From the NCBI GenBank assembly GCA_963555825.3, contig CAUVXB020000001.1:576001-640000 (forward strand): a stretch of 64,000 bases of DNA, written 5' to 3'. Shown piece by piece: positions 37,911 through 40,991 of this stretch. A model generated the notes under the pieces. The model searched no databases. It saw only the letters and a list, made by a program, of their open reading frames with translations, and had not been told where the DNA came from. Position numbers and translations under genes: made by a program. Source of the DNA: Alphaproteobacteria bacterium (GTDB lineage Bacteria; Pseudomonadota; Alphaproteobacteria; JAAXGF01). Every line of letters begins with the position of its first letter. The first letter of the stretch is position 1.

Positions 37911-38171
37911 TACCAAGGAACAGCGATAAAGGTCCCTAGAGATCGCGTCCGCTTTTTGCTGGGTAGGAAGGGAGCCGCGGGCGATGCAGCGCATCGGCTA
38001 GGCTGCCTGACGCCCTCCGGCGATAAGCGGCCGCGACCCGAAGGGCGGCTTGCCGAGGCTCTCGGACGTCGTTGCGCCCATCTTGCGATGCCAAGCATCG
38101 CCGCGACGGGCGCGCCTAGCCGAGAACCACGGCAAGCCGTCTCTAGGGGCCTTTATCACTGATCCTTGGTA
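37911..38171. mobile_element. MITE-like structured element B1 (261 bp including TA ends)
   Basis: 32-bp terminal inverted repeats TACCAAGGA...TAGAGA with 3 mismatches; colinear second copy at 40731-40991. Confidence 0.85.
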
Positions 38172-38183
38172 TAAGGGGGAGCC

Positions 38184-39716
38184 ATGAGAGAGATCATCGA
38201 GGAACTCGAACGCAAGCGCGCCGCGGCGCGGCTCGGCGGTGGCGAAAAGCGCATCGAGGCGCAGCACGCCAAGGGCAAGCTGACCGCGCGCGAACGGCTC
38301 GAACTGCTGCTCGACCCCGATTCATTCGAGGAGTTCGACATGTTCGTCGAGCACCGCGGCACCGACTTCGGCATGGCCGACCAGAAGGTGCCGGGCGATG
38401 GTGTCGTCACCGGGCACGGCACCATCGACGGCCGCCAGATGTTCGTCTTCAGCCAGGATTTCACGGTCTTCGGCGGTTCGCTGAGCGCGGCGCACGCCGG
38501 CAAGATCTGCAAGATCATGGATCACGCCCTGCGCGTCGGCGCGCCGGTCATCGGGCTCAACGATTCGGGCGGCGCGCGCATCCAGGAGGGCATCGATTCA
38601 CTGGCCGGCTATGCCGATGTGTTCCAGCGCAACGTGCTCGCCTCGGGCGTCGTGCCGCAGATCTCGCTGATCATGGGACCCTGCGCGGGTGGCGCGGTCT
38701 ACTCGCCTGCGATGACCGACTTCATCTTCATGGTCAAGGGTTCGTCCTACATGTTCGTCACCGGCCCCGACGTGGTGAAGACGGTGACCCACGAGCAAGT
38801 CAGCCTCGAGGAACTCGGCGGCGCGGTGACCCACACGACCAAATCGTCGATCGCCGACCTCGCCTTCGAGAACGACGTCGAGGCGCTCGAGCTCACGCGC
38901 CACTTCATGAGTTTCCTGCCGGCCTCGAACCGCGAGGGCCCGCCGACGCGGCCGACCGACGATCCGGCCGACCGCGCCGAGCCGTCGCTCGACACCCTGG
39001 TGCCGGCCAACCCCAACCAGCCCTACGACATCAAGGAGCTGATCGGCAAGGTCGTCGACGAGGGCGACTTCTTCGAGCTGCAGCCCGACTTCGCCAAGAA
39101 CATCGTCATCGGCTTCGGCCGCATGGCGGGCTCGACGGTCGGCATCGTCGCCAACCAGCCGATGGTCCTGGCCGGCTGCCTGGACATCGATTCGTCGCGC
39201 AAGGCGGCGCGTTTCGTGCGTTTCTGCGATTGCTTCAACATCCCGATCGTCACCTTCGTCGACGTGCCCGGTTTCCTGCCCGGCACGGCGCAGGAGTACG
39301 GTGGCATCATCAAGCACGGCGCCAAGCTGCTGTTCGCCTTCGCCGAGGCGACCGTGCCCAAGGTCACGGTGATCACCCGCAAGGCTTACGGCGGCGCCTA
39401 CGACGTCATGAGCTCGAAGCACCTGCGCGGCGACGTCAACTACGCCTGGCCGTCGGCCGAGATCGCCGTGATGGGGCCGAAGGGGGCCGTGGAGATCATC
39501 TTCCGCGCCGATGCGGACGACCCGGCCAAGATCGAGGCGCGCACCGAGGAATACCGCGCGACTTTCGCCAACCCGTTCATCGCCGGCCACCGCGGCTTCA
39601 TCGACGACGTCATCCTGCCGCACAACACGCGCCGCCGCATCTGCGGCGCGCTCTCGATGCTCAAGACCAAACGCCTCGACAACCCGCCCAAGAAACACGG
39701 CAACATCCCGTTGTGA
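38184..39716 (+). CDS. pccB: Acyl-CoA (propionyl-CoA) carboxylase beta subunit
   Basis: [46 protein letters not shown]. Confidence 0.93.
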
Positions 39717-39943
39717 GTCAGTCCGGCGACGACGCGGCGACGCAACGGGCGCGGCGCCGGCTGCGTGGCTTCGGCCTTCATCTCGCCGGCTATGGCGTGG
39801 TGATTGTGGCGCTCGCGGCGATCAATATGCTGAGCAGCCCGGAGAACCCCTGGTTCGTCTGGCCGATGGTCGGCTGGGGCGGCGTGCTGGCGGTCCACGC
39901 GGCCTTCGCCATGGGGCTGTTCGGTGGCTCGGACAGTGGTTAA
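39713..39943 (+). CDS. Small two-transmembrane (2TM-like) protein
   Basis: GTGA overlap with pcc[10 protein letters not shown]...IN...[17 protein letters not shown]. Confidence 0.8.
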
Positions 39944-39952
39944 GTTGACGCC

Positions 39953-40537
39953 ATGACCGAGCGCCTGGACGACGCCATCGCGCGCATCGACGCGGCCAGC
40001 GCCGAGGACCCGAACCGGGAGTTCGTCGATGGCGCGGCGCGGCCCACGGCGCTGGTCTACGCCGAGCGCATGACGGGCTGGCTCGATCGGCTGGCGCCCG
40101 AGGCGTCGGAGGCGCTGCGCATCGCCGCGCGCGCGCAACACATCGAGCGTTGGACGATCCCGCGCGCCGAGTTCCCCGACGGCCGCGAGGGCTATCACCG
40201 CTGGCGCACGACGCTCGCCAAGTTCCATGCCGAGCGGACGGCAGCGATCATCGCCGAGGCCGGCTACGAGACCGACGTCATCGACCGGGTCAAGGCGCTG
40301 CTCCGCAAGCACCGCCTCAAGACCGACCCGGAAGTTCAGATGCTCGAGGACGTCGCCTGTCTGGTGTTCCTGGAAAGCTACTTCGCCGACTTCGCAAAGC
40401 AGCACGACGAGGCCAAGATCATCGGCATCCTGCAGAAGACTTGGGCCAAGATGTCGTCCAAGGGTCACGACGCGGCGCTCGCCCTCGACATGCCGGCGGA
40501 GGCCCGCGCTTTGGTCGAGAAAGCTCTGAGCGGTTAG
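39953..40537 (+). CDS. DUF4202-like protein
   Basis: IDAASAEDPN, AARAQHIERW, GYHRWR, LEDVACLVFL, KTWAKMS. Confidence 0.82.
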   Translation: MTERLDDAIARIDAASAEDPNREFVDGAARPTALVYAERMTGWLDRLAPEASEALRIAARAQHIERWTIPRAEFPDGREGYHRWRTTLAKFHAERTAAIIAEAGYETDVIDRVKALLRKHRLKTDPEVQMLEDVACLVFLESYFADFAKQHDEAKIIGILQKTWAKMSSKGHDAALALDMPAEARALVEKALSG

Positions 40538-40538
40538 T

Positions 40539-40574
40539 GCATAATCCGGCCGATCTGGATCGGTCGGGTTATGC
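40539..40574. repeat. Long hairpin immediately after the DUF4202 stop
   Basis: GCATAATCCGGCCGATC-TG-GATCGGTCGGGTTATGC, a 17-bp stem with G-T pairs. Confidence 0.6.
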
Positions 40575-40582
40575 CAGCCCGC

Positions 40583-40670
40583 GCCAATCTTATCCCAACA
40601 AGAGGGGGGCCGCCGACCGTTCGGCCAATCCTTGTGGGATTAAGAATGGCCTTGTGGGATAAAGATTGGC
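40583..40670. repeat. 20-bp motif, two tandem copies plus one inverted copy
   Basis: CTTGTGGGATTAAGAATGGC (40631-50), CTTGTGGGATAAAGATTGGC (40651-70), inverted copy at 40583-40602. Confidence 0.7.
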
Positions 40671-40730
40671 CTGCGTGGCGATTGAACGCAGGTCATCTTC
40701 ACGCTGTGAAGATGGCCGAAAGCTAAATTA

Positions 40731-40991
40731 TACCAAGGATCAGTGATAAAGACCCATAGAGATCGCGTCCGCTTTTCGCCGGGTAGGAAGGGAGCCGCAG
40801 GCGATGCAGCGCATCGGCTAGGCTTCCTGACGCCCTCCGGCGATAAGCGGACGCGACCCGTAGGGCGGCTTGCCGAGGCCCTCGGACGTCGTTCCGCCCG
40901 CCTTGTGATGCGCTGCATCACCGCGACGGGCGCGCCTAGCCGAGAACCACGGCAAGCCGTCTCTATGGGTCTTTATCACTGCTCCTTGGTA
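40731..40991. mobile_element. MITE-like structured element B2 (261 bp including TA ends)
   Basis: TACCAAGGATCAGTGATAAAGACCCATAGAGA...TCTCTATGGGTCTTTATCACTGCTCCTTGGTA; direct repeat of B1, offset 2820 bp. Confidence 0.85.

Follow-up and report, generated by a model that had tools for sequence, protein, structure and literature searches.

A repeated element with terminal inverted repeats and a conserved three-arm fold in an alphaproteobacterial genome

Two copies of a 261-bp element and their family in the genome

Two 261-bp non-coding repeats, termed B1 and B2, lie in a 64,000-nt stretch of DNA from an Alphaproteobacteria bacterium (assembly GCA_963555825.3, contig CAUVXB020000001.1, positions 576,001 to 640,000; this whole stretch is called the window, and coordinates refer to it unless a contig is named). 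Both are members of a family, class A, which is non-coding and has 42 full copies in this genome. Its terminal inverted repeats are 32 bp long, its target duplication is TNA (3 bp), and its interior is a three-arm fold that is found in other bacteria between different terminal repeats. B1 (37911..38171, + strand) and B2 (40731..40991, + strand) were delimited by sequence reading, repeat search and folding. B1 is placed between an ATP12-family gene (37154-37849) and a propionyl-CoA carboxylase beta gene (38184-39716); the ATG of the latter is 12 nt past the right end of B1, which sits in the 5′ leader of that gene. B2 is placed between a DUF4202 gene (39953-40537) and a convergent gene for an AMP-binding enzyme (40992-42515, - strand). 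The repeat search of the window united both copies in a direct repeat of 266 nt with 91% identity (37910-38175 and 40730-40995). A preliminary description, made from the letters of the DNA, had called B1 and B2 colinear repeat copies, and the 91% likeness bears this out; every sequence string that it quoted is found in the sequence.

The fold that had been described was also recovered. In B1, the left terminal inverted repeat (37911..37942) is the 5′ half of a terminal stem, P1. It is followed by arm 1 (37943..38036), with the internal-loop motifs GGTAGGA and GACGCC and the tip GCGATGC-AGC-GCATCG; by a central CCC-GAA-GGG hairpin (38037..38045), which is the centre of a two-fold symmetry; by arm 2 (38046..38139), with the motifs CGTT and CCTAGCC and the tip GCGATGC-CAA-GCATCGC; and by the right terminal inverted repeat (38140..38171), the 3′ half of P1. 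We call the hairpin unit of arm 1 module M; arm 2 is the same module in inverted sense. The corresponding parts of B2 are the P1 halves (40731-40762 and 40960-40991), arm 1 (40763-40856), the central hairpin (40857-40865) and arm 2 (40866-40959), all likewise on the + strand. P1 is 32 bp and each arm is 94 nt in both copies. Folded as RNA, the + strand of B1 gave -170.2 kcal/mol (z = -11.3 against 200 shuffles) and its - strand z = -9.9; B2, folded with DNA parameters, gave z = -14.5. Two paired differences between the copies, claimed from the letters, were confirmed: the lower terminal stem is GGTCCCTAGAGA/TCTCTAGGGGCC in B1 and GACCCATAGAGA/TCTCTATGGGTC in B2, and the arm-2 tip of B1 is replaced in B2 by GTGATGC-GCT-GCATCAC.

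B2 is flanked by two copies of TTA (40728..40730 and 40992-40994); the right one, read as TAA on the - strand, also ends the AMP-binding enzyme gene as its stop codon. B1 has AAA on its left (37908..37910) and TAA on its right (38172-38174), a duplication decayed by one mismatch. A composite transposon made of B1, the carboxylase gene and B2 was considered and rejected: its outer flanks would be AAA and TTA, and B2 has TTA on both of its own sides. B1 and B2 are two separate, independent insertions.

The genome is 6.04 Mb in two contigs (C1, which holds the window, and C2), and all copy counts are genome-wide. The 42 full-length class A copies have a median pairwise identity of 93% and range from 260 to 298 bp. 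Size classes of ~261, 280 and 298 bp are due to two optional 18-nt modules in arm 2, X and Y, the latter located in a tip loop; 24 copies have neither, 11 only X, 2 only Y and 5 both. Terminal inverted repeats of 32 bp were present in 42/42 copies, starting with TACCAAGG and ending with CCTTGGTA. The flanks are a direct 3-bp repeat, TNA: the middle base is identical on both sides in 31/42 copies, whereas 14.6 are expected by shuffling (0/5000 shuffles reached the observed number), and it is complementary in only 2/42. The repeat is perfect in 18/42 copies (TTA 8, TAA 8, TGA 1, TCA 1). The TA target proposed earlier is therefore wrong, and the empty sites to expect are TNA sites. In 9/42 copies the three flanking bases double as the stop codon of a called gene, an association that arises because the target itself is TNA. 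A protein-coding reading was discarded, since no one of the six frames is open in more than 8/42 copies.

A search with nhmmer found 70 full cores, that is, interiors without P1, and 66 of the 70 are intergenic when judged by an approximate gene call, which covers 70% of the genome. Class A copies broken by other insertion sequences (ISs) and shortened remnants both exist. One copy, at C1:169402-171499, is interrupted in arm 2 by an IS110-family IS (340-aa transposase) together with a repetitive stretch. B1 had no match in a plasmid collection (blastn, distant mode). The involvement of a MITE (miniature inverted-repeat transposable element), assumed at the first inspection, was right: terminal inverted repeats and a target duplication are both present. 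Among the features of a MITE that we tested, all were found in class A except a cognate parent IS.

Covariation, fixed motifs and spread of the core

The interior was searched for with a covariance model of the core (205 nt, 77 pairs). Covariation was tested on 49 cores (48 distinct), which were aligned with MAFFT and without fitting to any structure. RNAalifold predicted 62 pairs from this alignment, and both sides had changed in 55 of them. A standard pair was formed in 88.4% of the cells, compared with 64.0% when the 3′ letters were shuffled and 32-45% when partners were slid by 1-3 columns; the covariation score was 0.614, against 0.184 and 0.13-0.18, respectively. None of 500 shuffles reached the observed measures. 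When 95 distinct cores were aligned to the model, an alignment that leans towards the model, at least two Watson-Crick types were seen in 62/77 pairs and at least three in 44/77. The earlier suggestion that the fold is being maintained is thus strongly supported, far beyond B1 and B2.

The lower and middle stems are nearly saturated with substitutions. The fixed islands are, in each arm, the tip GCGATGC-N3-4-GCATCG, whose loop varies; in arm 1, the internal-loop motifs GGTAGGA and GACGCC; centrally, GACCCGAAGGGCGGC; and in arm 2, CGTT and CCTAGCC. Over the whole genome the tip motif was counted 153 times, where ~3 occurrences are expected.

Template switching between hairpin arms during replication is, according to two papers, a known source of 'compensatory' changes (PMC8794818, PMC7202029). 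In a passive MITE, mutation alone would keep the pairing: switching between the arms of imperfect palindromes would restore complementarity again and again, and no selection would act on the fold. We regard this account as less probable than not by a clear distance, although it is the most probable of the rivals. In its favour, position pair 10/291 of P1 is Watson-Crick in 31/42 class A copies, against 16.4 in shuffled data, and the terminal repeats of another class, H (see below), also change in pairs by eye. The unpaired and tip motifs listed above, however, are fixed across families while adjacent stem columns carry 3-4 pair types, the arm lengths and the length of P1 (32-35 bp) are kept, and in arm 1 G:T cells greatly exceed A:C cells. 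Because conversion alone leaves the fixed motifs, the constant lengths and the G:T excess of arm 1 unexplained, we infer selection on the element. Arm-to-arm conversion, raised in the preliminary description as an alternative, stands as a partial rival; taken alone, it fails to account for the fixed unpaired motifs. Template switching probably helps to keep the stems paired, and it probably acts together with selection.

In related bacteria BLAST revealed copies with an interior of ~70% identity and a wholly different terminal stem, which is nevertheless an inverted repeat of 32-35 bp. In this genome the core lies between at least five unrelated sets of terminal repeats. Besides the 42 class A copies, the 70 full cores comprise roughly 28-31 others (31 diverged ones at a slightly looser length cut-off). 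Class B has the repeats AGTACTCCC..., class C cTAGTGGATAG... and class D AGGAGCCTATCC...; a genome search located the repeats of these three classes only on the elements themselves. Class H elements (~272 bp, with AGCCCGG... repeats flanked by CTAG) carry the same hairpin module, and their terminal repeats are those in which paired changes, CCATGG to CCAAGG or CCTTGG, were noted. Their number depends on the method: 35 by blastn matches of at least 250 nt, ~33 unbroken copies plus ~16 composites by pairing of terminal repeats, and 46-50 by matches to module M. The window holds a copy of this related class of the superfamily at 32510..32826, the inverted ends of which (CTAGCCCGGACTTCTCAC...) fit the class H repeats.

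One class B copy had inserted into the tip loop of a class H hairpin, between GCGATGCC and CGCGCATCG, and the composite was then amplified: 12 copies have its exact start, and the uninterrupted class H copies represent the empty sites. Most class B copies have spread as cargo of the class H composite. Longer perfect palindromes enclose one class A copy in another genome and one class D copy in the present genome. Loop nesting, the loop position of module Y and the placement in palindromes are in line with a preference of the elements for the loops of hairpins or the centres of palindromes, and such placements leave room for module M as the true recognised unit, a reading that we take up below.

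Core matches were obtained in 9/13 genomes of the family to which this bacterium belongs and, in a class-wide sample with one genome per family, in 16/151, this genome counted. In named public genomes, 38 of 80 loci selected by a motif pattern matched the model, 20 of them at 100 bits or more; the matches are mostly from Rhodospirillales, Hyphomicrobiales and Sphingomonadales records, and include Denitrobaculum tricleocarpae strain R148 (149 bits). In many genera and families, compensatory change has thus preserved the three-arm fold together with a few short motifs, whereas the terminal repeats differ between lineages. No prior description of this element family was found in the open-access literature searched. 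More than 100 loci of this genome match the covariance model and might, without it, be taken for small-RNA genes.

Two-fold symmetry, and possible strand preference and host roles

On the opposite strand, arm 2 is similar to arm 1. The reverse strand of the core is matched by BLAST as well as by the model, and a profile of arm 1 also finds arm 2 on the opposite strand, with 108 matches inside core copies. The element is thus a dimer with two-fold symmetry, built from one hairpin module and laid out as terminal repeat, M, 9-nt central hairpin, M inverted and terminal repeat. DNA transposons whose ends are equivalent have this layout. In a search of the genome, module M was found only in these elements.

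The strand on which the fold is kept was analyzed from wobble pairs, counted as cells and columns, not as evolutionary events. Arm 1 has 170 G:T cells and 30 A:C cells; arm 2 has 141 and 140, or 62 and 140 if one constant T.G column is left out. G:T exceeded A:C in 22 columns of arm 1 and fell below it in 5; for arm 2 these numbers were 9 and 16. The difference between the arms gave a Fisher p of 0.0016 with 95 sequences and of 0.011 with 34 representatives below 85% identity. A test over the whole element in class A, on a structure derived from the minimum free energy, had found 34 G:T and 76 A:C departures from the consensus pair, hence no overall bias; the per-arm analysis supersedes it. 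The data are suggestive of arm 1 pairing best on the + strand and of arm 2 leaning, if anywhere, to the - strand. Such a mirror bias is predicted by a mirror-symmetric constraint on each end and not by a single transcript. A folded single strand of DNA may have a role at each transposon end.

This result bears on the proposal of the preliminary description that the repeats may be functional structured RNAs. A family of dedicated structured non-coding RNA genes that merely happen to be repeated would agree with the very strong covariation and with fold z-scores of -10 to -14, and at low depth some stretches of B1 and B2 are found in contigs of two RNA libraries (X18 and X19). Neither transcription nor strand or ends can be read from such contigs, however, and carry-over of DNA is possible; contigs of X18, X19 and X20 include parts of the repeats and parts of the neighbouring genes. 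Terminal inverted repeats and a target duplication speak against RNA genes, and so does a wobble bias that depends on the arm. For the 41 intergenic class A copies, the upstream gene points in the same direction in 21 cases and in the opposite one in 20, and the downstream gene in 19 and 22, respectively. No sigma-70-like promoter was detected in 37700-41200, and the sole site resembling an intrinsic terminator lies outside both copies. A cmscan of 37000-42000 against Rfam 15 (E ≤ 1) returned two unrelated weak matches, both outside the elements, and none on the elements themselves. The RNA proposal is left unsupported: a dedicated one-strand RNA gene is unlikely, and a whole family of them, by our estimate, very much so.

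A second role for the host would be that of a regulatory cassette spread by transposition, acting as a two-way block to transcription, as a protector of mRNA ends, or as a dispersed binding site in which the palindrome GCGATGC-N3-4-GCATCGC would be read by a dimeric DNA-binding protein. The copies are intergenic and often abut gene ends (the stop-codon flanks, as at B2, are examples), B1 occupies the leader of the carboxylase gene, a two-fold design would work in either orientation, and the excess of the tip motif in the genome would suit a dispersed site. The elements have no T-run terminators, though, the association with stop codons follows from the TNA target, and no candidate binding protein was identified. 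We hold the cassette to be unlikely in any of these forms.

Candidate mobiliser and relation to known elements

The genome harbours an IS630-like IS of 1175 bp (HTH_33 and DDE_3 domains) in 66 full copies of 99-100% identity. The duplication usually ascribed to the IS630 family is TA. This IS has perfect TNA duplications in 52/66 copies (TTA 26, TAA 18, TGA 5, TCA 3), and its ends are TACCAGTG. Three more IS630-like types end in TACCAACGG, TACCATCG and TACCG. HTH_33 and DDE_3 of the 1175-bp IS are apparently encoded in two overlapping frames, and two partial copies of it are present in the window, at 52184-52615 and 55187-55943 (C1:628184-628615 and C1:631187-631943). Since termini and type of duplication are shared with class A, we take mobilisation in trans by the resident IS630-like clade as the most likely route.

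No pair of class A repeats in the genome encloses a transposase of its own. Candidates for a parent were examined and rejected. Those of 1476 and 2098 bp bounded by class A repeats are copies interrupted by IS630-like and IS110-family ISs, a 1732-bp class H element is interrupted by another IS, which duplicates TTAA, and solo class A repeats are shortened copies and not the ends of a parent.

We regard B1 and B2 as MITEs, that is, non-autonomous DNA transposons, and find it probable that they are moved by an IS630-like transposase and that module M is a selected part of each of their ends. A DDE transposase supplied in trans by a resident IS630-like IS would cut and paste the element. Module M would work as a hairpin of the strand whose 5′ to 3′ direction points inward from the end closer to it. 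Such a hairpin could form in DNA that is extruded or single-stranded, or in transcripts that enter the element from one side or the other.

Several observations weigh against this explanation. Class A and the IS630-like ends have only their first 5-7 bases in common, TACCA(A), so the link to the mobiliser consists of those bases and the duplication type. Neither the full class A terminal repeats nor module M were found on any IS of this genome, the only one for which the search for a parent element was complete, and for classes B, C, D and H there is no candidate mobiliser at all. In DNA run X1 no joint fits a precise excision of B1 or B2, and no insertion polymorphism was seen. The mirror bias of the wobble pairs comes from counts of columns and cells, not of events, and is weak in arm 2. 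The repeat pieces in the RNA-library contigs may reflect transcription. Finally, the mean column entropy is 1.10 for paired and 1.09 for unpaired positions; the contrast is therefore between the motif islands and the rest, and loops are more conserved than stems only where the islands are concerned.

Some of these features would be accommodated by an element that is recognised by its structure through an enzyme other than a DDE transposase. A REP-associated tyrosine transposase (RAYT), or an enzyme of the IS200/IS605 or IS110 type, would read the hairpins, and the terminal stem would need only to pair. The core is constant while the terminal stems depend on the lineage, and the sequence of the tip hairpins is fixed. 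One class B copy occupies a class H tip loop, and some copies lie inside longer palindromes. The 3-bp duplication and the conserved outermost bases (TACC, TAGTGG, TAGAGC) nevertheless fit DDE transposons, and no gene is consistently found beside the element. A link to RAYTs was tried and rejected: each of the three Y1_Tnp genes of this genome is flanked by different palindromes, unrelated to the element, and no GATGC...GCATC hairpin lies within 450 bp of them. These RAYT-like genes are at C2:1866978-1867667, C1:1325207-1325878 and C2:2727747-2728007, and one of their palindrome pairs is GTAGGGGCGGGTTTCAAACCCGCCCCTAC-like. An enzyme of this kind appears very improbable to us.

REP and REPIN elements are multi-copy intergenic hairpins whose structure is recognised as single-stranded DNA by RAYT transposases. 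Class A is likewise made of multi-copy intergenic hairpins, but its copies are ~260 bp long and have terminal repeats and a target duplication, and the palindromes beside the Y1_Tnp genes of this genome are not the GCGATGC hairpins. In the attC sites of integrons, structure is conserved while sequence is free, and the folded single strand is the substrate; these sites are 57-141 bp, lie beside gene cassettes and need an integrase. They serve here as an analogy for a possible way of working only, as size, cassette setting and integrase do not apply to class A.

A bolder reading takes module M, with its variable stems, fixed loop and fixed tip, as the true functional unit of a class-wide superfamily, read as a folded single strand. 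A putative factor would read M at both ends, and the terminal stem would need only to pair and to carry a few end bases. This would explain at least five unrelated sets of terminal repeats on one core, the nesting in loops and the lack of a parent IS. We rate it as a long shot, well behind a MITE moved by an IS630-like transposase.

Among known elements, MITEs mobilised by IS630/Tc1-mariner transposases (RUP, Correia and ERIC-type) have terminal inverted repeats, a TA-centred target, mobilisation in trans, an intergenic location and a long hairpin potential. Class A resembles them in its terminal inverted repeats, in a target centred on TA, in its intergenic location, in its hairpin potential and probably in mobilisation in trans. 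These MITEs duplicate TA, whereas class A and the resident DDE_3 IS duplicate the 3-bp TNA. In class A, moreover, the interior and not the terminal repeat is what is conserved, and no parent shares this interior.

The nearest precedent that we encountered is bcr1 of the Bacillus cereus group, described in a review as a non-autonomous interspersed repeat of ~155 bp with direct repeats, which is transcribed and in which base-pair compensatory changes maintain a cruciform-like structure (PMC3184786). On this description, bcr1 is like class A in being short and non-autonomous, in its direct-repeat flanks and in its compensatory changes. It differs in that it belongs to another phylum, has direct repeats of 5 bp and is reported to be transcribed; the two were compared by description only. 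The review passage on bcr1 mentions no dimer built from one hairpin module and flanked by exchangeable terminal repeats.

In the usual view, a MITE consists of two ends that bind transposase, with junk between them; in this family it is the interior that is conserved, and the ends vary. The family thus offers a natural system for asking what the interior of a transposon may do, be it in the synapsis of ends, as a single-strand hairpin signal or in the regulation of the host. A further question on which it bears is to what extent nucleic-acid structure can be upheld by template switching instead of selection.

Other features of the window and of the reads were noted. The stretch just left of B2 (40620-40672) holds two copies, in direct orientation, of the short sequence ccttgtgggat(t/a)aaga(a/t)tgg; this bin has the highest summed contig depth in DNA run X1 (16372) and is probably another high-copy short repeat. 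A weak match to rdlD, most likely due to chance, lies at 40652-40698; it scores 26.5 bits, whereas the gathering score is 50. DNA runs X6, X7 and X9, labelled 'sponge metagenome', contained 0.87-0.88 of the sampled words of 36900-41600, which we take as a habitat lead only. An inverted repeat of 451 nt (1-451 and 56111-56561; 99% complementarity, 55.7 kb apart) and a direct repeat of 300 nt (876-1175 and 17347-17646; 100% identity, 16.5 kb apart) are probably IS copies. A 102-nt unit, which would amount to 34 codons if coding, forms arrays at 45079-45786, 48065-48657 and 50146-50547 and is repeated both within and between these places, and the 300-nt blocks 45700-45999 and 46881-47180 are 100% identical.

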